From contig JAVCCB010000013.1 in the NCBI GenBank assembly GCA_030765685.1, positions 4,761 to 68,760 on the forward strand: 64,000 nt of DNA. Direction: 5' to 3'. Both the position numbers and the translations under genes were made by a program. Positions 2,186 through 64,000 of this stretch are shown here, in pieces. Every line of letters begins with the position of its first letter. Positions within the stretch are counted from its first letter, which is position 1. Origin of the DNA: Candidatus Tantalella remota. Its GTDB lineage: Bacteria; Omnitrophota; Gorgyraeia; Tantalellales; Tantalellaceae. The notes below the pieces were generated by a model that did no database searches, was not told the DNA's origin, and saw only the letters and a list, made by a program, of their open reading frames with translations.

Positions 2186-2309
2186 GATGTGACGTAACTA
2201 CTTACCGTATAACTATTTACAAATAGTTAAGAAAAAAATAGCTATCAAGCTTTTTGTTGTGTTAACTCTACCTTTTTGTTATAATAATATATTAATAAAA
2301 AGGAGCGTT

Positions 2310-23427: not shown

Positions 23428-24321
23428 ATGGACAGGAAGATCATAAGCGTTAGCAGGAGAACCGATATTCCCGCGTTCTATTCCGAATGGTTCATGAACC
23501 GTGTGAGGGAAGGGTATTGCACGGTCGTTAACCCCTATAATGCCGCTCAGATCTCACGTGTAAGTCTTGCTCCCGAAGATGTGGAGATCTTTGTGTTCTG
23601 GACAAGAAATGCCGCTCCGCTGATGGAAAACCTGGAAGAGCTCGACAAGAGAGGTTATAAGTACTATTTCCTCTATACTGTCCTTGGGTACCCGAAAGAG
23701 ATCGACCCCTTTTGTCCCACGCTTTCTGAGGTAACAGAGACATTCATTGCACTCAGCAGGATGATCGGAAAAGAAAAAATGGTATGGCGGTACGATCCTG
23801 TGTTGCTTTCCAACAGGACCACACTCAAATGGCATAAAGAACAGTTTTCCCGTATCTCTGAACTTCTTTTAGGTACATTTGAAAAATGCGTATTCAGCAT
23901 TATTGATCCTTATCGCAAAACGACGTCGAGGATCAGCAGAGAAACATCGCGGTCCTTTGAACTTCAGGAAGACGTGTTCGAACCCGAGGCATACCTGCCG
24001 CTTGTCTCATTCATGTCAGAAACAGCAAAGAGGGTGGGTTTTCAACTTTCATCCTGCGCCGAAGATATGGATCTCTCGGAATATGGCGTCTCCCACGGTA
24101 AATGCATAGACGGTGATCTCATCTCCCGGATCACGGGACATCCTGTCTTCGGAAAAAAGGACCCGAACCAGCGTAAAAACTGTAATTGTGTCGTTTCCAA
24201 GGACATCGGTGTGAACAATACATGCATTTACGGCTGCAAATACTGTTACGCGACCAGATCTCAGGAAAAGGCTGGAGAGAACTTCAAAAAACATGATCCC
24301 GAATCGATATCTCTGCTCTAA
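23428..24321 (+). CDS. DUF1848-family protein with a C-terminal Cys cluster
   Basis: N-terminus MDRKIISVSRRTDIPAFYSEWFMNRVREGYC. C-terminal cysteines CNCVVSKDIGVNNTCIYGCKYCYA. The family assignment is from memory of DUF1848 and is not certain. Confidence 0.5.
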   Translation: MDRKIISVSRRTDIPAFYSEWFMNRVREGYCTVVNPYNAAQISRVSLAPEDVEIFVFWTRNAAPLMENLEELDKRGYKYYFLYTVLGYPKEIDPFCPTLSEVTETFIALSRMIGKEKMVWRYDPVLLSNRTTLKWHKEQFSRISELLLGTFEKCVFSIIDPYRKTTSRISRETSRSFELQEDVFEPEAYLPLVSFMSETAKRVGFQLSSCAEDMDLSEYGVSHGKCIDGDLISRITGHPVFGKKDPNQRKNCNCVVSKDIGVNNTCIYGCKYCYATRSQEKAGENFKKHDPESISLL

Positions 24322-24623: not shown

Positions 24624-27600
24624 ATGAAAAAAATTAAAAGCATACAAAGTATCAATCCTATATTATTCCAACTGAAGAATATATGCGCGAAATATCCCCG
24701 CGATGAGAAGATTTTGATAACACCTGATTACCGCGTAGCCCAGCAGGTCCTACAGGCGCTTGCCAGAAGCGGAACACCCTGGATGAATTTTCAACTCGCC
24801 GCGGCTTCTGCTCTGGCGCATGACGCGGCAGAAGAAGCGATAATCTCAGGCAACCTGCAACAAATATCCGGTCCGGGAATACTTACCGTAATTGATGATA
24901 TTTTCAACGATCTGGCAGATAAGGGAAAACTTAAATATTTCGAAAAACACCAGACCAATATAGGGATAATACATGCTCTTACCAGCGTTGTTATGGAACT
25001 CCGAACAAAGGGAATACATCCAATAAATATAAAGGGTAAAGACCTGACAAATAAGGATAAAGCATATGATGTAAAGCTTATTTTGTCGGAGTATGAGCGT
25101 GTACTGAAGGCGAAGGGGCTTATAGACAAGGCGGAGCTTACCGCTCTGGCCATAGGTGCACTTGAAAAATCTCCGCCCGCGCGAGGGAAGAAGTATGTTA
25201 TTTTCTCCCGCTACTACATGAGCGGTCTTGAGCGGGACTTTATAGAAAAACTAACAGGCAAAGATCTTTTGATCATAGATGACGGGCCCGTGTTCGGTCT
25301 GCCGGCACCTAAGGGATTTTGGGAGACCGGAACGTCCGCTAAAAAGATAAATAGTTCATCCGATATCGAACGGTTGAGCTGGGCATATGCCTGTGGTGAA
25401 GCTCCAAAGATAAGGAAAGACGGTACTCTTGATCTTTTTTCTGCCATAGGTTTTCGTAATGAGATACGGGAAATATTCAGGCGGGTAGCCCAAGATGACA
25501 CCCCTGTGGATAAAGTAGAGATAGTGTATACCGATCCGGCGACATATATAAGGGAGATCTTTTCTTTCTGCGAAAAACTAGGGATACCGGCTACTTTTGC
25601 CGAAGGTATTCCCGGCAACACAAGAAGTCCCTTCAGGGCAATATCAGGTTTTCTTCTTTGGATCAAACACGATTTCGCGGAATGTTATCTGCGCAGGATA
25701 TTTGAGTCTGAGGACATGGATCTTTCGTCTTTGGGTGGAAAAAATATCCCGGACAGTCCGACTCTGGGACACATGTTGAGGATATCCGGTGTTGGCTGGG
25801 GAAGGGAAAGATATTCCTACATACTGGCAAAAAAACAACAGGAGTACGCGAAGAGAGCCAAAAAACCTTCTTATGATGACAAGGCCGAACTGGCAGACGC
25901 TAACGCGAAAAAAGCTGACAATTTTGATCTGTTAAAAACCCTTTGCGCGGATATCATAGAAATGGTCCCAAAAATAGATTCTTCCGGCAAAATAGATCTT
26001 TTGGGTCTCACTAGAGGGTGTATACGATTTCTTAATAACTATGCTCAGGGCTCTCTGGGGTTGGATGCGTCTTTTATAAAAGACGCCGTAGTTCGTCTCG
26101 AAATGATAGGACGATTCGCCTCGGGGTCGATGGATGTAGAAGAGGCCACTGAAAAACTTCTGGGTACTATTGCGACTATAAAGGTCGGAGCTTCCGGCCC
26201 CCGCCCTGGAAGCGTACATGTCTCTTACTACAAACAGGGCGGCCGGTCCGGCCGGCAGCACACATTTGTCACCGGACTTGATGAAAGTCGTTTTCCAGGG
26301 AGAGGGCTGCAGGACCCGGTTCTTCTTGACTCTGAAAGAGTCGTTATCAGCGGCGATATGGAGGTGTCCGCGGATAAAGTGAGAAAAAACGTTTACGACA
26401 TGGCAAGCATGTTATCCGGTCTCAGGGGCGCTGTCACAGCAAGCTTTTCATGTTTCAACGTAAGTGAAGAGCGTAACGTATTTCCATCATCTGTCATGCT
26501 TCAGCTTTATCGGATCAAGGAGGGAAACCCCGCTTCCGATTATGAGGACCTGCTTAAGTCACTTGAACCTGCCGCCGCTACCGTATCGCCTGATGAAGGA
26601 TCCATTCCTCTGGATGTTACTGAATGGTGGGTAGACAGGCTTTCTGATAATGGCGTTTTAAGTGACGGAACTGAAAGCATCTGTGGTATCTATCCGGGGG
26701 TAAAACACGGTCTTGCGGCGGAGAGGGCCAGGGACAGTGAAGAATTTACCGAATATGACGGAAAGGTCTCACCTCAGGGGGAAGAACTCGATCCGCGTGA
26801 CGATAAAGAAAAGGTTCTTTCCTGCTCAAGGCTCGAAGCCGCGGCGACATGTCCGTACAAGTATTTTCTCGCCAACGTGCTCGGGGTGGCTAAGCCCGAA
26901 GAAACGGTCAAGGACCCCGCTTTATGGCTGAATGCGAAGGAGAAGGGAAGCCTTCTCCATGAGGTATTCGAAAATTTTACTAAAGAAATACGTACTGCCA
27001 AGGGGGTGCCGACTCTCTCACAGCAGAGAAAGGTACTTGGAAAAATACTAAAAAATGTCATAGAAAAATATAAAAAGATGGTGCCTCCTCCGAGCGATGT
27101 TGTTTTTGAGGGTGAGTGTGTACAGCTTGAGAGGGATACCGATATATTCCTCAGGCTTAATGAACAGCTTAAGACAAAAGCAGTCCATGAAGAACTTGCC
27201 TTCGGCACAGGGGACGCGGACCCGGTAAAAGTATCACTTGGTAACGGGAAAAACATCTATCTTAGAGGGTTTATTGACCGGGTAGACCGCGCAGGCAAAC
27301 ATGAATATCATGTGTGGGATTACAAGACCGGCAGTGCGGGGAAGTATGAACGACGGCAGTATGTAGATAAAGGCAAACAGCTGCAGCATGCTCTTTACGC
27401 GGACGCCGCCGAGACCATGCTGATCAGAAGTGGCGAGGACCCGTTGCCAAAAGTAACGCGTTCTGGATATCTTCTGCCTTCGGAAAAAGGGGCGGGAGAT
27501 GGAAAGGGCGGTGTGTTCAGCCACGACCCGTCAAAAAAGAAAGAGTGGCAGGGCGCTCTTAACACGCTACTTGAAATATTGTCTTCCGGAGGATTTCTTA

Positions 27601-27740
27601 TGCCCGCTAAAGTCAACTGTTCATTTTGCGATTATGCGGTTATTTGCGGTGATAAAAAGACCCATGAAAGATCGAAGACAAAGGAAAAAAGCGATAATAT
27701 CTGCATAAAGCTATGGGGGGAGCTTCAAAATTATGCCTAA
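24624..27740 (+). CDS. addB: AddB/RexB-like PD-(D/E)XK nuclease subunit with a C-terminal Fe-S cysteine cluster
   Basis: C-terminal RecB-family nuclease motifs: ...CSRLEAAATCPYKYFLANVLG...GFIDRVDRAGKHEYHVWDYKTGS...CSFCDYAVICG. That is four Cys, as in the AddB Fe-S domain. No convincing Walker A. It overlaps the addA start by 8 bp. Confidence 0.7.
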   Translation: MKKIKSIQSINPILFQLKNICAKYPRDEKILITPDYRVAQQVLQALARSGTPWMNFQLAAASALAHDAAEEAIISGNLQQISGPGILTVIDDIFNDLADKGKLKYFEKHQTNIGIIHALTSVVMELRTKGIHPINIKGKDLTNKDKAYDVKLILSEYERVLKAKGLIDKAELTALAIGALEKSPPARGKKYVIFSRYYMSGLERDFIEKLTGKDLLIIDDGPVFGLPAPKGFWETGTSAKKINSSSDIERLSWAYACGEAPKIRKDGTLDLFSAIGFRNEIREIFRRVAQDDTPVDKVEIVYTDPATYIREIFSFCEKLGIPATFAEGIPGNTRSPFRAISGFLLWIKHDFAECYLRRIFESEDMDLSSLGGKNIPDSPTLGHMLRISGVGWGRERYSYILAKKQQEYAKRAKKPSYDDKAELADANAKKADNFDLLKTLCADIIEMVPKIDSSGKIDLLGLTRGCIRFLNNYAQGSLGLDASFIKDAVVRLEMIGRFASGSMDVEEATEKLLGTIATIKVGASGPRPGSVHVSYYKQGGRSGRQHTFVTGLDESRFPGRGLQDPVLLDSERVVISGDMEVSADKVRKNVYDMASMLSGLRGAVTASFSCFNVSEERNVFPSSVMLQLYRIKEGNPASDYEDLLKSLEPAAATVSPDEGSIPLDVTEWWVDRLSDNGVLSDGTESICGIYPGVKHGLAAERARDSEEFTEYDGKVSPQGEELDPRDDKEKVLSCSRLEAAATCPYKYFLANVLGVAKPEETVKDPALWLNAKEKGSLLHEVFENFTKEIRTAKGVPTLSQQRKVLGKILKNVIEKYKKMVPPPSDVVFEGECVQLERDTDIFLRLNEQLKTKAVHEELAFGTGDADPVKVSLGNGKNIYLRGFIDRVDRAGKHEYHVWDYKTGSAGKYERRQYVDKGKQLQHALYADAAETMLIRSGEDPLPKVTRSGYLLPSEKGAGDGKGGVFSHDPSKKKEWQGALNTLLEILSSGGFLMPAKVNCSFCDYAVICGDKKTHERSKTKEKSDNICIKLWGELQNYA

Positions 27741-30700
27741 AGTGAAGCCGCCGGACCAGAAAAACAGGGAAAGAATAGCAAAAAAGCTTAATAAAAGCTT
27801 TTTTGTCGAAGCCGGTGCCGGATCTGGAAAAACGCGCAGTCTTATCGATCGCATGGCGGGCCTTATTTCTGAAGGAGAAGCGAAGGTAGATAACATCGCG
27901 GCCGTTACTTTTACACGCAAGGCCGCCGCGGAACTGCGCGAAAGGTTCCAGATACGTCTTGAAAACATTTTCTCAGGAACAGATGTTTCTTCCATGGGAA
28001 AAGATAGGGTGAACGAAGCGCTTGCTCACCTTGACAGGGCATTTATCGGTACGATCCATGCTTTCTGCGCGAAACTCCTCCGAGAAAGATCGGTCGAAGC
28101 GAGTATTGACCCCGGATTCCAGGAAATACAGGAACAGGATAACATCGTTTACGCGCTCCGGGTGTGGAACGAATATTTGGAAAACGAGAGTATAAAGGGT
28201 AATAAAATGATATCCTGGATGAGGGAGAACGGGGTAGACACGCAAGAGCTTCATAGCGTTTTTCTCAAGAGGTCCGAGTATACCGATGTCATTCCGGTAG
28301 TTGACGATGTTTCTAAACCCGATCTAAAAAAGGATAAGGAAACCATAAAGAGATTCCTTACTTCCCTCAGAAAACACATGCCTACAGATGAACCGGCGGT
28401 CGGATGGGATGAGACACAGTCCGTTGTGGTCAGGTCCCTGCGGCTTATAGATATTGGGTACTTGAAGGAGGACCGTAAATTTATCCACCTACTGCGGTTT
28501 CTTTTAAAAAAACACGGGTTCACACAACGCAAGTGGAAAGACTACACAACAAGAGACCCGAAAGACATTAAGGCTGATTTTATAGAGTTCCAGGAAACTG
28601 CAGTCGCTGGCGCACTGAGAAAATGGGGAGAATATCTCCATAAACCGCTGATGGAATTCGTAGAGGGCGGTGTTGGTGAGTACAAAAAGTGGCGCGAAGA
28701 ACGGTCTCTACTGAATTTTCAGGACCTCCTTACTCTTACAGCAGGTCTTCTACGCAAGAGCCGTGAAGCCCGAAAATATTTTAAAGCAAATATCACGCAT
28801 CTTCTTGTAGATGAGTTTCAGGATACCGATCCGATACAGGCTGAGATCATACTCCTTCTTACAGGAAAGAGCGACACCGAGGATGATTGGCGTAAGGTCA
28901 GCCCCCGGCCGGGGTCACTTTTTGTGGTAGGAGACCCGAAACAGAGTATTTACAGGTTTAGGAGAGCCGATATAGATATCTACAACCTTGTGAAGAATAT
29001 CTTCAAAAAGAACGGTGACGGTATCCTTGAGCTTACGGCAAACTTTCGGTCGCTGCAGCAGATAGGAGACATCACGGATTCCTCATTTAAGAGTATCTTC
29101 CCCGAAGAGGACAGCAAGCACCAGGCAAAATTCGCGCCTCTTAACACCGCAAGAGACGTGGATAAAAAATTCGACAGCGGTATCTACAAAAACCCTATAC
29201 ATAAGATAACACGCAACAAGATAGATCTTATTGCCGTACAGGACGCGCACGACATCGCTCAATGGATCAATGCGGCTCTTCAAGGGGATATAAAATTACA
29301 GCGCACAGAAGATGAGCTCAGGGCAGGGCTTACCCCCAGGCCTGTTCCCGAAGATTTTATGATAATAACAAAAACAAAAAAACGCCTGCCGTGTTATGCC
29401 GCGGCTCTGGAGAAACTTGGCATCCCATATGAGGTCACCGGCGGCGAGAGTTTCAACGTATCCGAAGAGCTTAAAGAAATACACAAGCTCCTGAAATGTG
29501 TTAGTGAACCCTGTGATCCGGTGATCCTTATCGCTGTATTGCGCGGGCCGCTTTTTGGGGTAAGTGACGACGAACTATATAAGTTCATGCTCTCCGGCGG
29601 GGAGTTCTCTTACATCAAGGACCTGCCTGACGGATGTAAGGCAATTTGTAACGCATACAAGCTTCTCAGAGAGATGCGCGTTATTTCCCTGTCTGGATCA
29701 GCGTTTATCGCTGTGGAAAAAATAGTCGAGTTGGTAGGGATAGTACCACTGGCGGCGTCCAAAGAGATGGGATCCACTAAAGCGGGGAATATACTCAAAG
29801 CTCTCGAACTCTTGCGGGAGCCGCAGCCGGGACAGGCTGGGAGCTTTGCGGATCTTGCCGATACTCTTGGAACGTTCCTTGAAACAAAAGGCAAAGAAGA
29901 AATGAGCCTGTTTCCCGGCGCTACTAATGCCGTAAGGATAATGAACCTTCATAAGGCAAAAGGGCTTGAAGCACCCGTTGTTTTTCTGGCGGATCCTACG
30001 GGAGAACCCAATGAGCATGATCCGGTGATCCATATAAGCCGTACGGGCAGGGATTCCAAGGGGTATTTCGCTATCGCGTGTCCAAAAAGTCCCTTTTCTT
30101 CAGTGTTGAGATCGTTCGCGATCCCCCTGGAATGGAAAAAACAGGTAGAGGAAGAAAAAAAATATGAAAGAGCCGAAAGAAAACGCCTTGAATATGTGGC
30201 AGTTACCCGCGCCAGGAACATCCTTTGCATAAGTGAGTATTTCCCGGATAAAACAAGAGCCTCTCAAGCCTGGGACTGTGTCAACGGTTTTGCCGAAAGC
30301 GTTACGAATATTACCAGTGACCCGGTTCCCTCGAAGAAAAAAAACACTTTTGCTATAAAGAAAAATGACTGGGAAAAGGAAAATCTTAAGATCAAAGAGA
30401 TGGTCGACCGTATTAACGAAAGTTCCTATGTGCTCACTAGTGTTACCCGTCAGGCAAAAGGTAACGCGACTTTTGAAGGGGGGGGCGGCGGAAGCGGCAG
30501 AGGCTGGGGCAATGTGGTCCATAAAGCTCTCGAAGCCTGCGGTCGCGGTAAACGCGACAAGCTGGAACTCCTCGCCGTGAACTGGATGGAAGAGGAAGAC
30601 ATCCGGGAAAAGGATATATTCCGGCTCCTGCGTCTTGTGGACAGTATAATGGAAAGTGATCTCTGGAAACGTCTTCTTGATTCAAAAGAAAAATACTTTG

Positions 30701-30927
30701 AAATGCCGTTCTCTCTCGCGGAAGGTGACACGGTACTCGCGGGTGCGATCGACCTCGTATTTAAAGAAGACGGGGGGTGGGTCATAGTAGATTACAAGAC
30801 AGACAATTATGAAAAAGACCCCGGTCGCAAAAAAGCCTATGAAAAACAGCTCGCCATCTATGCCGAACATTGGGAAAACATAACCGGCGAACCTGTCAAA
30901 GATAAATTACTCCGCCACGTAACCTGA
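27733..30927 (+). CDS. addA: AddA/UvrD-like ATP-dependent helicase-nuclease subunit A
   Basis: Walker A EAGAGSGKTRSL. DEAD-like box VDEFQDTDPIQ. Helicase motif VI region VAVTRARNIL. C-terminal PD-(D/E)XK nuclease motif GAIDLVFKEDGGWVIVDYKTD. Confidence 0.85.
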   Translation: MPKVKPPDQKNRERIAKKLNKSFFVEAGAGSGKTRSLIDRMAGLISEGEAKVDNIAAVTFTRKAAAELRERFQIRLENIFSGTDVSSMGKDRVNEALAHLDRAFIGTIHAFCAKLLRERSVEASIDPGFQEIQEQDNIVYALRVWNEYLENESIKGNKMISWMRENGVDTQELHSVFLKRSEYTDVIPVVDDVSKPDLKKDKETIKRFLTSLRKHMPTDEPAVGWDETQSVVVRSLRLIDIGYLKEDRKFIHLLRFLLKKHGFTQRKWKDYTTRDPKDIKADFIEFQETAVAGALRKWGEYLHKPLMEFVEGGVGEYKKWREERSLLNFQDLLTLTAGLLRKSREARKYFKANITHLLVDEFQDTDPIQAEIILLLTGKSDTEDDWRKVSPRPGSLFVVGDPKQSIYRFRRADIDIYNLVKNIFKKNGDGILELTANFRSLQQIGDITDSSFKSIFPEEDSKHQAKFAPLNTARDVDKKFDSGIYKNPIHKITRNKIDLIAVQDAHDIAQWINAALQGDIKLQRTEDELRAGLTPRPVPEDFMIITKTKKRLPCYAAALEKLGIPYEVTGGESFNVSEELKEIHKLLKCVSEPCDPVILIAVLRGPLFGVSDDELYKFMLSGGEFSYIKDLPDGCKAICNAYKLLREMRVISLSGSAFIAVEKIVELVGIVPLAASKEMGSTKAGNILKALELLREPQPGQAGSFADLADTLGTFLETKGKEEMSLFPGATNAVRIMNLHKAKGLEAPVVFLADPTGEPNEHDPVIHISRTGRDSKGYFAIACPKSPFSSVLRSFAIPLEWKKQVEEEKKYERAERKRLEYVAVTRARNILCISEYFPDKTRASQAWDCVNGFAESVTNITSDPVPSKKKNTFAIKKNDWEKENLKIKEMVDRINESSYVLTSVTRQAKGNATFEGGGGGSGRGWGNVVHKALEACGRGKRDKLELLAVNWMEEEDIREKDIFRLLRLVDSIMESDLWKRLLDSKEKYFEMPFSLAEGDTVLAGAIDLVFKEDGGWVIVDYKTDNYEKDPGRKKAYEKQLAIYAEHWENITGEPVKDKLLRHVT

Positions 30928-53908: not shown

Positions 53909-55333
53909 TTATTGGCGGCCTATCTTGATCAGCCGTTTACCAGACATAAGATTTTCTTCTATCTTTTCCAGCGGTACGCCCTTGGTCTCCGGCACAAAAA
54001 TGAAGAGGACGATTATAAAAATAACGTTAAGTCCTCCATAAAGCCAGAAGGTATGTGCCGGGCCGAGCACATTGAGCAGGGTAAGGAACGTGGCTCCCAC
54101 TATAGCGTTGCACAGCCAGTTCGTCGCCGTACTCACGGTAATACCCAGGTCTCTTCCACTAAGCGGAAATATTTCCGCGCAGATGACCCATATTATGGGC
54201 CCGGCACTCATCGCGAAACCTATTATGAACATAAGAAGCGACCCTACCGCGGCGTACTGAATAAGGTGAGACCCTTGTATCCCAAGGTGGAACATAAGCC
54301 CCAGAGAACCCATGCTGCATCCCATCACGACAAACCCGGCAAACAATATAGGTTTACGTCCAAGTTTATCAACGAGAGCTATGGCTATGAATGTAGCAAG
54401 TACGTTGATAAGCCCAACAAGAACGGTTCCCCACATGGCCTGCGAGGTAGTGGAAAACCCTGCCAGTTTGAATATCCTTGGAGCGTAATACATAACGACG
54501 TTCATCCCGGTGAACTGTTGTATGGCCTGAAGACCGATTCCAAGAAAAATGACTTTACGAAACTGTTTATTCGAGACCAACAGCTGCCATCCGCTTTGTT
54601 TTGACTCGAGAGCCTGTTCTATATCCTTGAGTTCCTCTTCGACCTCGTCTTCATGACGCAGTTTTGCCAAAACTTCTCTGGCTTTTTTTCTGTTACCGTT
54701 TAGGACCAGCCATCGCGGGCTTTTGGGCAATATCATGACCCCAAAGAACATGATAGCAGAGGGGATTACCAGCACACCAAGCATAAGGCGCCAGTGACCG
54801 CCGTAACTCAGGAACGTATCACTGAGATACGCGCTTAAAATACCTATAGTTATCATCAGCTGATACATCGATATCTACGCTCCTCTTACTCTCGGACACG
54901 CCATCTCCGATAGATAGAGTGGGGCGGTGAACGACGCGATACCGACAGCAAGACCAAGAAACAGCCTGACGCCTATCAAAACGGGCGTGTTGGGCGCGAT
55001 CGCGGAAAAGAACGCGCCAATGGCAAAGACTACCGCGCTCACGATCAAAGCGTTTTTCCTGCCGTATTTGCGGGAAAGAGCGCCGCTTATGATCGTACCT
55101 ATCAGAGCTCCTACCAGCAGTGAGCTCACGATGATCTCCTGAGATACGGTACCCGCGTTGAAGTGCTTAGCAATGAAAGGTAATGCTCCTGAAATAACAC
55201 CGATATCGAGGCCGAACAGGAGTCCAGCCAACGCGGCCATGAGACCTACAATATAGACCAGTACCTTACATTTTCGGACCTCCTTAAACTCTTCGGCAAT
55301 TACAGCGTCTGATTGAACAAAGTTGTTGTCCAT
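53909..55333 (-). pseudogene. MFS sugar-porter family transporter (GalP/AraE-like) interrupted by a single in-frame TAG
   Basis: Track ORFs 54875..55333 (N-terminal part, ...PLYLSEMACPRVRGA*) and 53909..54868 (MYQLMITIGIL...PETKG) are in the same frame. They are separated only by a TAG (plus strand CTA at 54875..54877) and then ATA TCG. The sugar-porter signatures run continuously across the stop. Confidence 0.7.
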
Positions 55334-57744: not shown

Positions 57745-59064
57745 ATGATGAATAAATCAAGAAGACCCCTGATCATAGGAATACCTCAAGAAGCGAGGGA
57801 CTCAGAGCGAAGAGCGCCCCTTACGCCTTCTAATGTAAAATGGCTCATCGACCAAGGCCTTAAGGTAGAGGTCGTATCCTGCCCGAAACGCATTTTTGAA
57901 GACAAAGAATACAGGGATGCCGGAGCCACGGTAGTCAAAAAGACCAAAAAAGCGAACTTTATGGTCGGAATTAAAGCTCCCGAACCGGAAAACCTGCTCC
58001 CGGGTAAGGTCTACATGATCTTTTCGCATACAATGAAAGGTCAAAGGGACAACATCTCTCTCTTAAAGGAAATGTTGAAAAAAGGGGTCACGCTGATCGA
58101 TTACGAGAAGATCCGCGATAACAGGGGTAAGCGAATAGTGTTTTTCGGGAGGTTTGCCGGTATCTGCGGACTTGTAGACAGCCTTCATTATTATGGCAAA
58201 AAAATGGCCCTCAAGGGCATAAAGACACCTTTCCTACAGATCAAACCCAGCTGGAAGTACCGCGATCTGGAACATCTTAAAGAAGGTGTCTCAAAAGTGG
58301 GAGAGATCATCGCGACAAAGGGGCTTAGCAAGCGCATAACGCCGTTCATCATAGGGATGATCGGCAGAGGCAACGTCTCTAGCGGAGCGCAGGAAGTCCT
58401 TGCTCTGATGAACTCTATCGAGGTGCATCCCCAGGACATGCGAAAATTCATAAGAAGCAAAAACGATGACGGGAAGCATATTTACTCCATCGTCTTTTAT
58501 CGGGAAGAGAAGCTGCGCCACAAAGCCAAGAAGAAGTTCTATTTTGAGGAGTATCTCGATCATCCCGGAGTTTTCGAATCAAATATGGACAAATATATCT
58601 CCGAGCTGAACATGCTCGTGAACACCAGCTACTGGGATGACCATTACCCGCGATTGATAACGAAAAAAATGATACAAACATGTTCTAAAAGAAAGAACTT
58701 TCGCCTGCAGTTCATCTCCGACATATCCTGTGATGTGGAAGGAGCCGTAGAGTTGACGTACAAGACGACGACCCAGAAAAAACCGGTTTACACATATGAC
58801 CCCGTGACTAACAGCTTTAAAGATGGCGTTAACTCCCGCGGAATATCTATCCTCGCGATAGATAATCTGCCCACTGAACTCCCCGCGGATTCGTCAGAAA
58901 ATTTCAGCGACATAATAAGGGAATATGTATATCAGGTGGCCGCGCATGGGTCCAAAGATATAGTTGATCACATCGCCTTGCCTCGGGAGATACGGGAGGC
59001 TACGATAACCCAGAGAAACAGCCTGACGGACAGCTACCAGTATTTAAAATGGCACCTGCAATGA
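57745..59064 (+). CDS. Alanine-dehydrogenase/PNT N-terminal-domain protein, saccharopine-dehydrogenase / LOR-like
   Basis: N-terminus RRAPLTPSNVKWLIDQGLKVEVV matches the AlaDh_PNT_N pattern. 439 aa. Confidence 0.55.
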   Translation: MMNKSRRPLIIGIPQEARDSERRAPLTPSNVKWLIDQGLKVEVVSCPKRIFEDKEYRDAGATVVKKTKKANFMVGIKAPEPENLLPGKVYMIFSHTMKGQRDNISLLKEMLKKGVTLIDYEKIRDNRGKRIVFFGRFAGICGLVDSLHYYGKKMALKGIKTPFLQIKPSWKYRDLEHLKEGVSKVGEIIATKGLSKRITPFIIGMIGRGNVSSGAQEVLALMNSIEVHPQDMRKFIRSKNDDGKHIYSIVFYREEKLRHKAKKKFYFEEYLDHPGVFESNMDKYISELNMLVNTSYWDDHYPRLITKKMIQTCSKRKNFRLQFISDISCDVEGAVELTYKTTTQKKPVYTYDPVTNSFKDGVNSRGISILAIDNLPTELPADSSENFSDIIREYVYQVAAHGSKDIVDHIALPREIREATITQRNSLTDSYQYLKWHLQ

Positions 59065-60134
59065 CAAAAAACACTAGAAAAAAAAGTTCCCTGACAATAC
59101 TTGCCATAGGCGATATCGCCGATTTTGATTCTTTCTGCAAACTCGACAAGGAAAAACGATACATCAATAAATGCGGGATAGAATACAAAGCTATCGACTA
59201 CGACCACATACTCAAAAAAGGGGAACTGGACATACTCACAAAAAACACCGTTATTTTTCCTTTCTTTCCGTTCAAATACTGGGACAAGAACATCGAACAC
59301 AAAAAGTACCGCGGTCTTTACGGAAACATTTCTTTCAGTAAAAAGTTTCTTACTTTCTGTAAACTCGTTGACCGCAATATCGACATGATGTTCGCCGGCA
59401 AAAAATATATTTTCATGAACGACCTCCAGAAATGCGCTCTTTATCGTGACAAAAAGACGGTAATGACACTTCTCAAGAAGAAAGGGGTAAAAGTTCCCGC
59501 GACCTTCTACACGAAAAGTGCGAAGAGGATAAAAGACCTGCTTTTTCGCGGAAAGAAGATCTTCATCAAACCGAGATGCGGATCTATGGGGAAGGGGATA
59601 ACGTATCTGGAAGAGGGTTCCTGGAAAACCAATTTTAAGGTAAGGAAAAACAAAATAAGTAACCGGCATTCCGATTACGGCTGGAAGTTCAGGAACGTGA
59701 CGGGCAATTCCTCGTTCCTAAGAGACCTACTTCGAAGGGATCTGCAGATAGAAGAAGCAGTAGATACCCTCGTTATAGGTGACCATAAAGTGGATTTCAG
59801 GGTTTACGTGTTCTCCGGGAAAGCCCTCTACGTATATCCGCGGCTCAACTCCAGGGATTCCGTTACAACAAACATATCCCAGGGTGGTAAAGGCCGTCCG
59901 GGTATCCTAAAAAAGATCCCCAAAAAAGTGGTGGCCATGATAGAGAAAGAAAGCGTTAAGGCCGCAAAAGCGCTCGGCCTCGGTCTAGCGGGCGTAGACG
60001 TCGTGGTCGACCAGGACATGAAGAACGCTTACATCGTAGACATAAACATGTTTCCGGGATTACCTAAAAGACGTACTATCAACTTAGCCCGGGTTATGGT
60101 AGACGAAATAGCGAGCAAACGAACTAAATACTGA
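59049..60134 (+). CDS. ATP-grasp fold protein (YheC/YheD- or RimK-like)
   Basis: KIFIKPRCGSMGKGI...DFRVYVFSGKALYVYPR...QGGKG...VVDQDMKNAYIVDINMFPG. It overlaps the upstream gene by 16 bp. Confidence 0.55.
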   Translation: MAPAMTKNTRKKSSLTILAIGDIADFDSFCKLDKEKRYINKCGIEYKAIDYDHILKKGELDILTKNTVIFPFFPFKYWDKNIEHKKYRGLYGNISFSKKFLTFCKLVDRNIDMMFAGKKYIFMNDLQKCALYRDKKTVMTLLKKKGVKVPATFYTKSAKRIKDLLFRGKKIFIKPRCGSMGKGITYLEEGSWKTNFKVRKNKISNRHSDYGWKFRNVTGNSSFLRDLLRRDLQIEEAVDTLVIGDHKVDFRVYVFSGKALYVYPRLNSRDSVTTNISQGGKGRPGILKKIPKKVVAMIEKESVKAAKALGLGLAGVDVVVDQDMKNAYIVDINMFPGLPKRRTINLARVMVDEIASKRTKY

Positions 60135-60154
60135 ATACTATATACTAAATACAA

Positions 60155-60580
60155 ATGGAGGACATGATCATTCAACGAGCCGCCGAAACCGACTGGCCTT
60201 ATATAAAAGAAAAGCTGGTAAAATATATGCTGGACTCTGACGATGCAGACTGGCCTCAGTTCTTTGTCGCGAAAGAAAACGACAAGACAATAGCTTTCGC
60301 CAGGCTGAAAGATCACGGCAGCTATTTTGAACCCGCTTCTGTGGGGGTGGACTACTATCACAGAAAGTCTGGTATCGGAACAGAAATTCTCACGTTCCTT
60401 GTCGGAGAGGCTAGAAGGCTGGCTCCTGAAAAAGAAATTTACGCGGTTACACACCGTCCGGAATTTCTGAAGAAAAGCGGCTTTGAAGAAATCTCCGATG
60501 GTCCGAAAGAGATGGAATGGAAACGGCAGAATAAATGCATCCATCCGGAGGATGCCGCTATATTGAGATATGCAGGGTAA
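60155..60580 (+). CDS. GNAT-family N-acetyltransferase
   Basis: 141 aa. HRKSGIGTEILTFLVGEARRLA (motif A, Q/RxxGxG/A). The alternative start at 60164 sits directly after GGAGG. Confidence 0.7.
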   Translation: MEDMIIQRAAETDWPYIKEKLVKYMLDSDDADWPQFFVAKENDKTIAFARLKDHGSYFEPASVGVDYYHRKSGIGTEILTFLVGEARRLAPEKEIYAVTHRPEFLKKSGFEEISDGPKEMEWKRQNKCIHPEDAAILRYAG

Positions 60581-60702
60581 ATTGTGAACAGTAAACAGAA
60601 TTTGGGAAGAGGGAATGGAGAATGGAGAATGGGGAATAGTGGCACAATTCCCTGTTCCCTATTCACGATTCCCAAAAATTGTGCCCAGGATTATCTATAA
60701 CT

Positions 60703-60990
60703 ATGAAATGTACTAAGTGCAAAAAAGGACTGATGATCGAAACCTCTATGCGGAAACTGGACATCTCTGTAAAGTGGCTTCTCATTTTTATTTTAGTAAT
60801 TATCATCTATTTTGTGGTTTACGGAATGTTATCTCGCAAATCCGGATCAGACAGCGCAATGCCCATCTTTGTGGGATTATCGCCATTGGTATTCGGCCCG
60901 CTTGTCATGCAATTCAGGCGAAGAAAAAACGTCCACGGCTGGAAATGCCCTGTTTGCGGAAATTTCATACGGGAAAAGGACGTTGGCTGA
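60703..60990 (+). CDS. Small zinc-ribbon membrane protein
   Basis: MKCTKCKKG...TM helix...WKCPVCGN. Two CxxC pairs flank one TM segment. Confidence 0.45.
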   Translation: MKCTKCKKGLMIETSMRKLDISVKWLLIFILVIIIYFVVYGMLSRKSGSDSAMPIFVGLSPLVFGPLVMQFRRRKNVHGWKCPVCGNFIREKDVG

Positions 60991-61117
60991 GAAGTCATAG
61001 CTTACGAGTCACTTCTAAGTCACCTGTGCGCGATACCCCATAAGCAAGATATCTCTGGACAAAAAACGTTTCGTAAATACCTTTCAATAGCTTATAATGA
61101 TAGAAAAGGGAGAGCTG

Positions 61118-61417
61118 ATGAAGAAGAAACAGGTAAAAAAGATTCTTGCCGGCATGGGGATTGTGAGCCTTATCTCAAGTGTAGGGTTCCTGACTTCCGC
61201 GCAAGCGGGACAAAGCGGGTCCTCCGATTCAGGATCTTGCGGGAAGGGTTCTTGCGGCTCAAAAAACGCCACTACCGAAGCGTCAGCAAAGTCTTCCTGC
61301 GGGAAGGGTTCCTGTGGTAAAGGTGCTGCCGGGGCAAACGCGAAAGGCTCATGCGGGAAAGGCGCCGCCAACACAGCCGGCGCTACTGAATTTTCCGGAG
61401 AAGACATTCCGTATTGA
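61118..61417 (+). CDS. Small repeat peptide: an N-terminal hydrophobic signal- or leader-like segment followed by a Gly/Ser/Lys/Cys-rich region with three SCGKGSCGKG repeats. It is a candidate precursor for the adjacent radical SAM enzyme.
   Basis: MKKKQVKKILAGMGIVSLISSVGFLTSAQA|GQSGSSDSGSCGKGSCGSKNATTEASAKSSCGKGSCGKGAAGANAKGSCGKGAANTAGATEFSGEDIPY. AAGGGAGAG lies before the ATG at 61118. Confidence 0.55.
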   Translation: MKKKQVKKILAGMGIVSLISSVGFLTSAQAGQSGSSDSGSCGKGSCGSKNATTEASAKSSCGKGSCGKGAAGANAKGSCGKGAANTAGATEFSGEDIPY

Positions 61418-61458
61418 TCAAGAGCCGATCAGCTCTATAGTTACAATGGGGGGATGGG

Positions 61459-63078
61459 ATGATCATCCCGCCCCCCATTCAGCATTACCTCAAAACGGTT
61501 CTTATGCACACTACTCATAAAGAACAGCTCGAAGATCTCTATCCTGTATCCTGCTCGATACTCGAACATGATCTTATAGAAAGGTTAGCTTCCAAAACAA
61601 ATGAACCTTTCGACCCCGAGGATCTGGCAGATATTTTAGAATTCTTCTGCAGCGATGACAATATTCCGGACTTCATCCCTGAACTCGCCCGTCTGGAATG
61701 GACTTTCAATAAAGTAAAAACTTCAGATGTCGATCTGCTCGCAGACTCGGACGCAACAGAAATAAACCCATCTCTTGAGGTGGTCGATCTTTCATGGAAA
61801 CTTTCCTCATTTCTCACTGGTAGCCCGACTGCAAGTCCCGAAAAAAACAACGAATGGGCGCTCATCTGGAAAGACCCCACAACCGGTGAGGTCAGGGTCA
61901 AGGCGGCCTCAAGCGAAGATTTACTCGCCCTTAAGATGATCGCGGAAGACCTTGCTCTGGACAAAGCCGCAGAACAAGGGAATGTTCCAGTAGAATGTAT
62001 ATGGATAATATTCTCTAACGCGACTAAAGAAGGAATACTTATCGAACCACGCTCATGCATTAGAAGGCGTGTCGGCTCATCTGACGACCCCGAGGAATTT
62101 CAGAGCGCGGATACTTTTACTCTGCAATGGCACATAACAAATACCTGTGACCTTCATTGTAAACATTGTTACGACCGCAGTGAAAGATCACCGCTCACGC
62201 TTAACCAGGCGCTGGGTATCCTCAACGATATGCGTTTCTTCTGTAAAAAAAGGCATGTCCAGGGGCACGTATGTTTCACCGGCGGCAACCCCTTCATGCA
62301 CGTAGATTTTTTTGACATCTATGCTGAGACCGTCAAACGGGGGTTTTCCACATCTATCCTGGGAAATCCCGTCCCCCGTGAGAAGATCCAGAAACTTATA
62401 AATATACGTAAACCCTTTTATTTCCAAGTAAGCCTTGAAGGGCTTGAAGAACATAATGATCACATCCGTGGTAAAGGGCATTTCCTGAGTATTATCGAAT
62501 TTTTAGAGGTTTTGCGTGACTTAAACGTGTCCACTGCCGTAATGCTTACTCTTACAAAAGATAATATAGACCAGGTTATACCTCTGGCAGAAAAACTGCG
62601 TGGCCATACTGAATATTTCACCTTTAACCGTCTTTCAAGAGTGGGAGAGGGCGCCAACCTTTTTCTCCCTACGCCTAAAAAATATGAGGCTTTTCTGGAA
62701 CTTTATGTAAAAGCTTCTGAAAACAATCACATTATAGGATTCAAGGACAACCTTATAAACATAACCCTGCATAATCAAGGAAGTCCGACCTTTGACGGCT
62801 GCACGGGTTACGGTTGTGGCGCGGCGTTCAACTTTCTTACAGTCCTGCCTGACGGAGAAACTCACGCGTGCCGTAAATTTCCTTCACCGGTAGGCAATGT
62901 GGTAACGCACACCATCGCTGATGTCTACGATTCCCGGAAAGCCGCACTTTACCGAAAAGGACCCAGTGAGTGCACGGGCTGCGCTCTTGTAAGATCCTGC
63001 AAAGGATGTATGGCTATCTCGCACAGCCAGGGGCTTGATGTTTTTAAGAATAAAGACCCATATTGTTTTATACGTTGA
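61459..63078 (+). CDS. Radical SAM enzyme with a C-terminal SPASM/twitch auxiliary Fe-S domain (peptide-modifying maturase-like) and a ~200 aa N-terminal extension
   Basis: Radical SAM motif CDLHCKHC (Cx3Cx2C) near aa 225. Gly-rich SAM motif GGNPF. C-terminal Cys-rich region CTGYGCGAAFNF...HACRKF...CTGCALVRSCKGC (Cx2Cx5Cx2C), typical of SPASM domains. Confidence 0.8.
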   Translation: MIIPPPIQHYLKTVLMHTTHKEQLEDLYPVSCSILEHDLIERLASKTNEPFDPEDLADILEFFCSDDNIPDFIPELARLEWTFNKVKTSDVDLLADSDATEINPSLEVVDLSWKLSSFLTGSPTASPEKNNEWALIWKDPTTGEVRVKAASSEDLLALKMIAEDLALDKAAEQGNVPVECIWIIFSNATKEGILIEPRSCIRRRVGSSDDPEEFQSADTFTLQWHITNTCDLHCKHCYDRSERSPLTLNQALGILNDMRFFCKKRHVQGHVCFTGGNPFMHVDFFDIYAETVKRGFSTSILGNPVPREKIQKLINIRKPFYFQVSLEGLEEHNDHIRGKGHFLSIIEFLEVLRDLNVSTAVMLTLTKDNIDQVIPLAEKLRGHTEYFTFNRLSRVGEGANLFLPTPKKYEAFLELYVKASENNHIIGFKDNLINITLHNQGSPTFDGCTGYGCGAAFNFLTVLPDGETHACRKFPSPVGNVVTHTIADVYDSRKAALYRKGPSECTGCALVRSCKGCMAISHSQGLDVFKNKDPYCFIR

Positions 63079-63169
63079 CAAAATACTATACCAGCAACTA
63101 AAACCAAAACTATTGACTAAAACGAGATAGGTTTTACTATATACTAAATACTAACCTACGGGAGCTTTC

Positions 63170-63754
63170 TTGAATTTCGGTTTCTTGCTATTTAACGGAA
63201 TGGAAGAGCTTGACCTTGTCGGGCCCTGGGAAATGATCACCACATGGGGTGCCTATGCCGGGGGACCGGACAACTGTCTTATGATAGCCGAGACACCGGA
63301 ACCTGTTAGATGTTACAACGGAATGAACGTTATACCTCATGCTACTATAGATATCGCGGCAAAACTCGATTATCTGCTTGTCCCGGGCGGAATGGGAACA
63401 CGAAAAGAAGTCAACTACGCGGCGCTTGTGGATTACGTCACCGCTCAGGAAAAGACCTGTAAAGCGATCCTTTCTGTTTGTACGGGGGCATTTATCCTGC
63501 ATGCCGCGGGCCTCCTGCATGGTAAAAGAGCTACTACACACTGGATGTCATTAAATCGATTAAAAGACCTGGGCGATGTTGAAGTCGTGGAAGAACGTGT
63601 AGTCAAAGACGGAAAAATATGGACCTCCTCAGGCGTTTCCGCCGGCATAGATCTGGCCCTGGCTTTCATAAAGCATGAATCCGGGGAAGACGCGGCCGGG
63701 AAAGTGCAGGCCCTCACCGAATATTATCCCTCAGGCAAGAAATACGGGAAATAG
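63170..63754 (+). CDS. DJ-1/PfpI-family (class I glutamine amidotransferase-like) protein
   Basis: TTG start with GGGAG RBS. Nucleophile elbow ILSVCTGAFILHAAGLL and the downstream His (ATTHW). Confidence 0.8.
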   Translation: MNFGFLLFNGMEELDLVGPWEMITTWGAYAGGPDNCLMIAETPEPVRCYNGMNVIPHATIDIAAKLDYLLVPGGMGTRKEVNYAALVDYVTAQEKTCKAILSVCTGAFILHAAGLLHGKRATTHWMSLNRLKDLGDVEVVEERVVKDGKIWTSSGVSAGIDLALAFIKHESGEDAAGKVQALTEYYPSGKKYGK

Positions 63755-63851
63755 CCTCCATTATCCAAAGACCTTTCCTTAACCCTAAATTAACACTCAG
63801 GGGGTATACTTAAAGTAGTTGAGTACGGGTATTCTTAGGAAGGAGGAGAAG

Positions 63852-64000
63852 ATGGAAACCAGGGATCTTACCAGCTGCTGGGACTTTTTCAAATGTGAGC
63901 ATACCGATTGCCCCGCTTATGGTAAAAAAAGCCACTCATGCAGATGCTGGATCATCGCCTCTAAATATGTCGATTGTCCCGCCGGAGTTGGCATCACCGA
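63852..64000 (+). CDS. 5' end of a Cys-rich small protein; it continues past the window
   Basis: GGAAGGAGGAG RBS. METRDLTSCWDFFKCEHTDCPAYGKKSHSCRCWIIASKYVDCPAGVGIT... has 8 Cys in 50 aa. Confidence 0.4.
   Translation, partial: METRDLTSCWDFFKCEHTDCPAYGKKSHSCRCWIIASKYVDCPAGVGIT

Follow-up and report, generated by a model that had tools for sequence, protein, structure and literature searches.

The closest known system to the locus described here is SbtA/SbtM (NCBIfam TIGR04081 and TIGR04082, the enzymes being formerly named 'selenobiotic family peptide radical SAM maturase'), of which a Geobacter enzyme was characterised by the Bandarian laboratory. According to the chemistry as given in a 2022 perspective and a 2024 review, SbtM is a maker of thio(seleno)oxazoles; the Geobacter product shows a mass change of -4 Da and absorbance at ~304 nm, the modification is placed at Gly-Cys/Sec, and Cys works like Sec (PMC9204691, PMC11002830). 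In the same accounts, each Cys of the characterised family member becomes 4 Da lighter and its thiol can still be alkylated (PMC9204691); the substrate has Gly before the Cys/Sec, where the precursor of the present locus has Ser.

Peptides with 5-thiooxazoles are also known from the bufferins and captophorins (BufABC, HvfABC/oxazolin, FonABC/fontiphorin, gonophorin), metallophores that are made by an MNIO (multinuclear non-haem iron oxidative enzyme, DUF692) together with DUF2063/PME1 partners. Metal binding has been reported for 5-thiooxazole peptides with Sec signal peptides and DUF2063 partners (PMC11626156, PMC12668002).

Identity of the gene pair

In the window, i.e. the whole 64-kb stretch of DNA analysed here, the two-gene cassette at 61118..63078 on the forward strand is very probably an sbtA-sbtM pair, and thus belongs to a RiPP class already described (Table 1). 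The class is represented by curated models, one biochemically characterised member and the GenBank annotation of this very enzyme: the 539-aa protein is identical to an entry named SbtM that derives from Candidatus Tantalella remota, a MAG of the Omnitrophota. Against TIGR04082, an equivalog-level model with a cutoff of 350 bits, it scores 680.9 bits, with residues 27-537 covering profile positions 1-516 of 516, and it has >3000 homologues at E<1e-20.

Table 1. Features of the sbtA-sbtM locus (positions in the window)
Feature	Position	Strand	Evidence or remark
Shine-Dalgarno-like GGGAG	61108..61112	+	read from sequence; 5 nt before sbtA start
sbtA, 99-aa SbtA-family precursor	61118..61417	+	TGA stop 61415-61417; TIGR04081 and leader HMM
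Signal/leader region, aa 1-30	61118..61207	+	n-region KKKQVKK, h-region ILAGMGIVSLISSVGFL, c-region TSAQA
SbtA core peptide, aa 31-99, G/S/A/K-rich	61208..61414	+	five S-C-G units
Hairpin enclosing sbtM start codon	61449..61475	+	RNA folding compared with shuffles
sbtM, 539-aa thio(seleno)oxazole-forming radical SAM/SPASM maturase	61459..63078	+	TIGR04082
SbtM N-terminal domain, aa 1-216	61459..62106	+	helical bundle and beta3-alpha3 winged-helix, DUF2063/PME1-like (predicted fold)
CX3CX2C motif CDLHCKHC (C230, C234, C237)	62146..62169	+	binds radical SAM [4Fe-4S] cluster
SPASM / auxiliary-cluster region	62800..63066	+	eight Cys

The sbtA ORF comprises 100 codons (99 aa and the TGA stop), and its product reads MKKKQVKKILAGMGIVSLISSVGFLTSAQA followed by GQSGSSDSGSCGKGSCGSKNATTEASAKSSCGKGSCGKGAAGANAKGSCGKGAANTAGATEFSGEDIPY. 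A small ORF on this strand had been noted in the sequence-only reading and is confirmed, with the ATG at 61097 (106 aa) now replaced by that at 61118, which is preferred because GGGAG lies 5 nt upstream and the resulting peptide fits the family. From this start SbtA scores 33.5 bits against TIGR04081 (cutoff 30.5 bits). An independent, non-circular leader HMM, trained on 25 precursors from outside the Omnitrophota, has the sbtA ORF as its sole match among the six-frame translations of the window (33.5 bits, E 1.9e-9). The region of aa 1-30 aligns with the family consensus MDkkeLKKiLAGlglAGLiAGagL, and the hydrophobic N-terminus, earlier read as either a Sec signal or a leader, resembles a Sec signal peptide; the same stretch is the part of SbtA that is conserved and defines the family. 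Sequence features suggest that signal peptidase I may cleave after AQA.

The core contains five Cys (residues 41, 46, 61, 66 and 79; codons at 61238, 61253, 61298, 61313 and 61352), each within S-C-G-(K/S), and all five are predicted thiooxazole sites. They form the tandem doublets SCGKGSCGSK and SCGKGSCGKG and one single SCGKG, so that the S-C-G-K/S repeats reported earlier are present, as two doublets and a single and not as three full 10-mers. At the DNA level, a 23-nt unit occurs at 61235 and 61295 with 87% identity. The motif had not been recognised from a described RiPP class, but it does belong to one: SCGK/S is what the SbtA motif [S/G]-[U/C]-[S/G]-G becomes when Cys is used. No CxPxR motif is present in SbtA, and exact-sequence look-ups in the protein collection did not find the peptide.

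The enzyme lies directly downstream on the same strand as described before, the gap being 41 nt (61418..61458). The 64-nt region 61412-61475 folds with -24.2 kcal/mol (z = -2.14; 8 of 200 shuffles were as stable), and the hairpin around the sbtM start codon may perhaps tune translation of SbtM relative to SbtA.

In SbtM, Pfam identifies Radical_SAM at aa 226-379 (59.7 bits) and SPASM at aa 453-517 (28.5 bits), which together with CDLHCKHC confirms the Cx3Cx2C motif and C-terminal SPASM-like domain seen earlier. C230, C234 and C237 are invariant among 22 aligned homologues, as are C448, C453, C471, C505, C508, C514, C517 and C536 of the SPASM region. The family scan upheld the proposed enzyme type and gave SbtM (TIGR04082) as the sub-family in place of a thioether/cyclophane type.

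The ~215-aa N-terminal domain is family-specific, precedes the radical SAM core and aligns in all homologues. Its relation to DUF2063 is visible only by fold comparison of the predicted structure; the Pfam DUF2063 signal in the N-domain family is faint (best E 0.008, 4 of 33 members), and the N-domain profile has no match below E 0.1 among PDB sequences. The domain is presumed to be the module that binds the precursor, and precursor recognition, already suggested for this extension of ~200 aa, is consistent with the predicted DUF2063/RRE-like fold. A role in binding the leader is not assured, because the signal peptide of bufferins is dispensable for modification (PMC11626156).

Conservation of the pair in other genomes

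Co-occurrence in other genomes had been named as the check that could refute a RiPP precursor/maturase pair at this locus. The comparison was run and strongly favours the pair, and the claim is borne out: an SbtA-like ORF adjoins sbtM in 77 of 80 related loci (73 detected by HMM and four by eye), and enzyme and peptide are the only conserved neighbours. In a set of 77 precursor ORFs that includes the one of the window, selenocysteine alone is used by 46, cysteine alone by 20 (the window peptide among them) and both by 10. The modification context is [S/G/A]-[U/C]-[S/G]-G in all of them, and Ser is the commonest residue at position -1 of Cys/Sec. The SCGKGSCG motif is not a chance feature: it is also present ahead of sbtM in further Omnitrophota (L012, L019, L022), in Lentisphaerae (L034) and in Elusimicrobiales (L077). 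A lipobox is found in about two thirds of SbtA precursors, in place of which the window peptide carries a signal peptidase I type site (between AQA and G). The 'selenium RiPP' family is therefore common well outside Geobacter and Desulfobacteria, roughly one in four of the precursor ORFs sampled is wholly without selenium, and the majority of precursors resemble exported peptides or lipoproteins.

The flanking Cys-rich genes, to which the sequence-only reading had drawn attention, do not belong to the system and are not conserved near sbtM in the 80 loci. Neither the zinc-ribbon membrane protein (60679/60703..60990) nor the fragment from 63852 has informative family matches, and both were rejected as partners; the latter contains 6 Cys in 49 aa inside the window, not the 8 Cys in 50 aa reported. 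Also rejected were the ATP-grasp, GNAT and AlaDH-like genes on the upstream side and the DJ-1/PfpI gene on the downstream side, none of which is conserved with the pair in the same loci. No metal-homeostasis genes were found in the 64-kb window, and DUF692 (MNIO) had no match among the Pfam-scanned window ORFs, which comprise most of the long ones.

Expected product and alternative explanations

From the class assignment and the [S/G/A]-[U/C]-[S/G]-G context, a 5-thiooxazole with -4 Da per Cys is expected, not thioether or cyclophane crosslinks. Following published SbtM biochemistry (PMC9204691), the enzyme would grip the precursor in the cytoplasm, probably by its conserved N-terminal region and via the DUF2063-like domain. 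Reductive cleavage of SAM would then lead to abstraction of Cys C-beta hydrogens over two successive oxidations, and a ring would form between the Cys backbone and the carbonyl of the residue before it, which is Ser in this peptide. The resulting 5-thiooxazole would retain a free thiol(ate), with a mass change of -4 Da for each site (PMC9204691). Modification of up to five sites in SbtA would amount to about -20 Da. The N-terminus could subsequently serve as the Sec signal, and a cut after AQA would free an extracytoplasmic peptide of 69 aa, rich in Gly, Ser and Lys. Solely by analogy with MNIO-made bufferins, oxazolin and fontiphorin, paired thiooxazoles (C-G-K-G-S-C) may chelate copper or another soft metal.

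The sequence-only reading favoured a RiPP with thioether or cyclophane crosslinks, of the sactipeptide, ranthipeptide, SCIFF or triceptide type, in which the SPASM enzyme would join the sulfur of a Cys to carbon in a different residue, with -2 Da for each link. The general architecture, a radical SAM/SPASM enzyme beside a Cys-rich peptide, would suit such chemistry, and SbtM has weak matches to models of this type that reflect shared domains: PapB (71.4 bits, cutoff 340), StsB (55.8, cutoff 625), AlbA (44, cutoff 850) and SkfB (37.7, cutoff 300). However, these and related models reach 36-72 bits against cutoffs of 300-850, as compared with 680.9 against 350 for SbtM; all radical SAM models other than TIGR04082 among the matches listed cover the protein only from about residue 204 and are far under their cutoffs. 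Moreover, the core offers no conserved acceptor residues, just G/S/K/A flanking each Cys, and the characterised relative, as reviewed, loses 4 Da per Cys with an alkylatable thiol (PMC9204691), which leaves this chemistry unsupported and very unlikely. Somewhat less remote, yet still improbable, is another product of the same family, either an oxazolone-thioamide (also -4 Da) or, by an anSME-like first oxidation only, a thioaldehyde/formylglycine. In related MNIO products, these two heterocycles of -4 Da were mistaken for one another and needed special NMR to be separated, the proposed first step of SbtM is described as resembling anSME chemistry (PMC9204691), and each Cys of the window is preceded by Ser where the tested peptide had Gly. 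Against this, the SbtM product absorbs at ~305 nm, now held diagnostic of 5-thiooxazole (PMC12668002), and Ser at -1 is a normal substrate context because it is the commonest residue there across natural SbtA precursors.

It could also be supposed that the small ORF is an exported, low-complexity Cys/Gly-rich bystander and that SbtM acts on a substrate encoded elsewhere, e.g. as a sulfatase maturase. The plausible Sec signal peptide of SbtA would fit, as would the failure of exact look-ups to retrieve the peptide from among annotated proteins, but the same arrangement of a leader and Cys/Sec-repeat ORF adjoins sbtM across many phyla, the peptide lies above the cutoff of the SbtA model and lacks a sulfatase motif, and no anSME model occurs among the best 25 of 54 family matches of SbtM; we regard this explanation as extremely unlikely. 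Just as hard to credit is the idea that the TGA at 61415 encodes selenocysteine, in which case the precursor would be longer and contain selenium. UGA is recoded in most relatives and TGA is indeed the stop codon of sbtA. However, relatives of the Sec type carry a SECIS hairpin (GGUGC-loop-GCACC, 14-17 nt downstream) after every in-frame UGA, and a hairpin of this kind is absent after the terminal TGA of sbtA; an Rfam scan of 60000-64000 gave no SECIS and nothing else relevant. The residue context would be Y-U-S-R, not [S/G/A]-U-[S/G]-G, and read-through would soon meet a second TGA overlapping the sbtM start. Read-through was thus rejected on account of the wrong residue context and the missing hairpin. 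At the predicted modification sites, SbtA of the window has TGC/TGT codons only, and the missing selenocysteine is compatible with SbtA membership because 20 of 77 precursors are Cys-only and the enzyme accepts Cys. Within the 64-kb window, to which this search was confined, neither tRNA genes nor selenium-utilisation genes were found.

Comparison with known systems

Like the rest of its family, SbtM of the window matches the equivalog model over its full length and combines the N-terminal domain with a radical SAM core and SPASM. SbtA shares with its family the leader sequence, the Cys in a context of small residues and Gly, and the two-gene layout. Unlike most SbtA peptides, it is without selenocysteine and SECIS, a trait common to the Cys-only precursors; a further difference is that its Cys stand in tandem SCGKGSCG doublets.

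The maturases of sactipeptides and ranthipeptides (AlbA, SkfB, PapB, CteB) resemble SbtM in having a radical SAM core and SPASM, Cys-containing substrates and often an N-terminal RRE. They differ in forming thioether links (-2 Da) and in an RRE that is PqqD-like and lacks the DUF2063 helical subdomain, and SbtM scores far under the cutoffs of their family models. TglHI (3-thiaglutamate pathway) and MbnBC (methanobactin) are MNIO enzymes with RRE-containing partner proteins; they differ from SbtA/SbtM in chemistry (Cys excision and oxazolone-thioamide, respectively), in the catalytic subunit and in precursors that lack a signal peptide.

The bufferins and captophorins invite a closer comparison. 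It is tentatively proposed, at somewhat less than an even chance, that SbtA/SbtM is an oxygen-independent counterpart of these metallophores, which would share with it the 5-thiooxazole, a precursor with a signal peptide and Cys/Gly/Lys repeats, and a homologous DUF2063-type module, the catalytic subunit having been swapped in evolution. This link was not found in the literature covered, which for the chemistry of SbtM comprised the 2022 perspective and the 2024 review. If the proposal is true, the DUF2063-type module of SbtM has a radical SAM oxidant as its fusion partner where the other systems pair it with an O2-dependent multinuclear iron enzyme, so that recognition module and type of substrate were kept while the catalyst was exchanged. 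Anaerobes among the Omnitrophota, Desulfobacterota, anammox Planctomycetota and Nitrospirota would then make exported, often lipid-anchored thio-/seleno-oxazole metal chelators. The predicted DUF2063-like fold of the N-terminal domain would tie SbtM to MNIO-made copper-binding thiooxazole peptides and, should this tie hold, suggests a testable function, namely that in anaerobes these peptides chelate metals outside the cytoplasm. There are also differences: the MNIO catalyst is unrelated to the radical SAM/SPASM enzyme, the DUF2063-like module forms part of the enzyme itself in SbtM whereas it is a separate protein in bufferin and captophorin systems, and the pair in the window, unlike those systems, has no DoxX or MNIO gene nearby.

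Identity of the precursor-maturase pair

The sbtA-sbtM pair belongs to the SbtA/SbtM thio(seleno)oxazole family, which is already described, and is unexceptional within it. SbtM scores 680.9 bits (cutoff 350) over all 516 profile positions of NCBIfam TIGR04082 ('thio(seleno)oxazole modification radical SAM maturase SbtM'), and other radical SAM/SPASM families (ACGX, PapB, mycofactocin, AlbA, SkfB and others) match only from about residue 204, far under their cutoffs. The thioether or cyclophane chemistry proposed in a sequence-only reading therefore has no support, as TIGR04082 is matched above its cutoff and PapB, AlbA and SkfB fall far below theirs. The GenBank entry identical over 539 aa is SbtM of a metagenome-assembled genome of Candidatus Tantalella remota, phylum Omnitrophota, and more than 3000 SbtM homologues have E<1e-20. 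Since the ORFs, the Cys motif units, the CX3CX2C motif (C230-x3-C234-x2-C237) and the Pfam domains Radical_SAM and SPASM were all found, the observation of a small peptide ORF followed by a radical SAM/SPASM enzyme is confirmed with small corrections only; the RiPP pair was correctly spotted, its class is already known and its enzyme is already annotated as SbtM.

The window SbtA is a genuine Cys-only member of the family. A length of 100 codons, as proposed earlier, holds (99 codons plus TGA), with the start moved by family fit from ATG 61097, which gives 106 aa, to ATG 61118. Begun there, SbtA scores 33.5 bits against the precursor model TIGR04081 (cutoff 30.5); begun two codons downstream, it scores 27.4 bits, slightly under cutoff. 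A leader HMM built from 25 precursors, all from outside Omnitrophota, found the sbtA ORF as its sole match (E 1.9e-9) in the six-frame translated window. The peptide comprises MKKKQVKKILAGMGIVSLISSVGFLTSAQA followed by a Gly/Ser/Ala/Lys-rich core of 69 aa, and has a signal peptidase I type site (AQA|G) in place of a lipobox. All five core Cys lie within S-C-G-(K/S), in two tandem doublets (SCGKGSCGSK, SCGKGSCGKG) and one single SCGKG. The repetition reported earlier is thus real, and is detectable at the DNA level too, though not as three SCGKGSCGKG units. The Cys codons are TGC or TGT only. The terminal TGA was considered as a Sec codon and rejected, its residue context being wrong and the SECIS-like hairpin of Sec-type relatives being absent. 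Opposite sbtA, the low-complexity antisense ORF at 61084..61407 is its shadow. The stretch separating sbtA from sbtM contains two small hairpins (61421-61436 and 61449-61475); the latter encloses the sbtM start codon and a G-rich ribosome-binding stretch (z -2.1), and might lower SbtM translation relative to the precursor.

Conservation and diversity of sbt loci

In a one-genome-per-species scan, 571 sbtM-encoding stretches were obtained and 80 related loci retained. Co-occurrence, which the sequence-only reading had set as its refutation test, was borne out: an SbtA-like ORF was identified by HMM in 73 of the 80 loci, nearly always immediately upstream on the same strand, and four of the seven HMM-negative loci do carry one, which the HMM missed where the ORF has a non-ATG start or the contig ends. 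The upstream sequence was too short for judgement in one locus, and no SbtA-like ORF was found within 700 nt upstream of sbtM in the other two. Clustering of all ORFs from the 80 loci and the window identified only the enzyme and the peptide as conserved, and sbtA-sbtM is a two-gene cassette. The next commonest neighbour, absent from the window, is a DUF547 protein (12/80 loci). It was observed, often convergent, beside sbtM at L034:3409-4245, a Lentisphaerae locus (PF04784, 91 bits), and at 11 other loci, and may be an accessory of some sbt cassettes. Two SbtA-type precursor genes occur near a single sbtM in three loci (L048, L055, L068); the L055 pair consists of a Cys-only copy and a mixed Cys/Sec copy.

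Of the 77 precursor ORFs compared, one is the window's own and 76 come from 73 related loci; 46 have in-frame UGA only, 20 Cys only and 10 both. Ser, Gly or Ala precedes the Cys/Sec, and [S/G] then mostly G follows, a context that the window S-C-G-K fits. The SCGKGSCG doublet was also identified in Omnitrophota (L012, L019, L022), Lentisphaerae (L034), Elusimicrobiales (L077) and an unclassified MAG (L004). In Sec-type relatives (L005, L006, L011, L014, L026 and others), a GGUGC-AGGUR-GCACC hairpin, which looks like a bacterial SECIS element, lies 14-17 nt after each UGA (for instance L005:4695-4740). The hairpin sequence itself encodes the conserved peptide segment 'GAGGT/GAGST' and would explain its conservation; RNA structure, and not the function of the peptide, may be what constrains this segment. 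After the last UGA there is often only Ser-stop, so that the hairpin lies in the 3' UTR. In 49 of the 77 ORFs, about two thirds (for instance L005:4599-4820), a lipobox (L-x-[GAS]-C) follows the hydrophobic segment, and such precursors are predicted from their sequences to be lipid-anchored RiPPs. An A-x-A signal peptidase I type site takes its place in the window peptide and in some other copies from Omnitrophota.

Neighbouring genes

The sequence-only reading had pointed to flanking Cys-rich genes, whose involvement is not supported; in the ORF clustering of the 80 loci and the window, the zinc-ribbon gene and the 63852 fragment are bystanders, as are the ATP-grasp/GNAT genes and a DJ-1 gene. 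The AlaDH/PNT-like, ATP-grasp and GNAT genes could form a small ligase pathway, with no conservation beside sbtM across the 80 loci. The 63852 ORF has no match in Pfam or NCBIfam and is likewise not conserved there.

Features of the window
Feature	Position	Strand	Remarks
sbtA	61118..61417	+	ATG 61118, 99 codons and TGA stop; start favoured by family fit and GGGAG 5 nt upstream
sbtM	61459..63078	+	539-aa ORF; start 41 nt past sbtA stop
AlaDH/PNT-like protein, YheC/D-type ATP-grasp ligase, GNAT acetyltransferase	57745-60580	+	three co-directional genes just upstream of cassette
Cys-rich ORF	63852-64000	+	open at window end; C-W-x4-C-x4-C-P ... C-x-C-W ... C-P; 6 Cys/49 aa
MFS sugar transporter, two adjacent ORFs	53909-55333	-	152 aa (Sugar_tr positions 2-138); 319 aa (positions 142-451)
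Two very large ORFs	2259-10142, 10568-15202	+	2627 aa and 1544 aa; hardly any recognisable domains
DUF1848 protein; adjoining AddB/AddA-like nuclease-helicase pair	23428-24321; 24624-30927	+	DUF1848, 329 bits

Outside the cassette the window encodes ordinary functions, among them an asparaginase, a glycerol kinase, the AddAB-like nuclease-helicase listed above and a Leloir galactose cluster. The split transporter, which sits inside the galactose-utilisation cluster (galM, galT, galK and an epimerase, 50.4-57.4 kb), points to a frameshift, pseudogene formation or an assembly error. One very large ORF has a sub-threshold HD match and the other a HATPase_c domain. No selenium-utilisation, metal-homeostasis or tRNA genes were found in the 64-kb window, and no genes of multinuclear non-haem iron oxidative enzymes (MNIO, DUF692) among its Pfam-scanned ORFs, which cover most long ORFs.

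Putative recognition domain, chemistry and related systems

Residues 1-216 of SbtM (N-domain) were modelled with AlphaFold2 from an alignment of 33 sequences (pLDDT 89.1, pTM 0.81); the model predicts a helical bundle, then three strands and three helices. The model and the fold comparison, with which Foldseek agrees, support at the fold level the earlier guess that this extension is a recognition domain, the predicted fold being of the DUF2063 type; MbnC and lasso-peptide RREs stand lower down the comparison list. Pfam DUF2063 is touched by just 4 of 33 SbtM family members (best E 0.008) and NGO1945_C by one of 33, and a PDB profile search with the N-domain gave no match.

A Geobacter SbtM is reported to remove 4 Da per Cys or Sec, with a new absorbance near 304 nm, and deuterium moves from Cys C-beta to 5'-deoxyadenosine; the product keeps an alkylatable thiol, its NMR is consistent with an oxazole formed by the Cys backbone and the carbonyl of the residue before the Cys, and the iron and sulfide content of the enzyme is sufficient for three [4Fe-4S] clusters (PMC9204691; PMC11002830). 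By homology, the window SbtM would carry out this reaction at up to five SbtA Cys sites; the peptide would then be exported by Sec and lose its signal peptide.

MNIO-made versions of the same heterocycle bind copper in bufferins (PMC11626156) and in oxazolin, fontiphorin and gonophorin (PMC12668002), and by analogy we infer metal chelation by modified SbtA. As bufferin modification proceeds without the signal peptide (PMC11626156), caution is warranted on what the N-domain binds. The resemblance of the N-domain to the MNIO module was not mentioned in the literature searched, which did not cover the primary SbtM paper. MNIO systems, which share the heterocycle of the SbtM product and signal-peptide-bearing precursors, use the same type of recognition module as that predicted for SbtM, and the modelled DUF2063-type N-domain would thus link a radical SAM enzyme to the MNIO thiooxazole metallophores.
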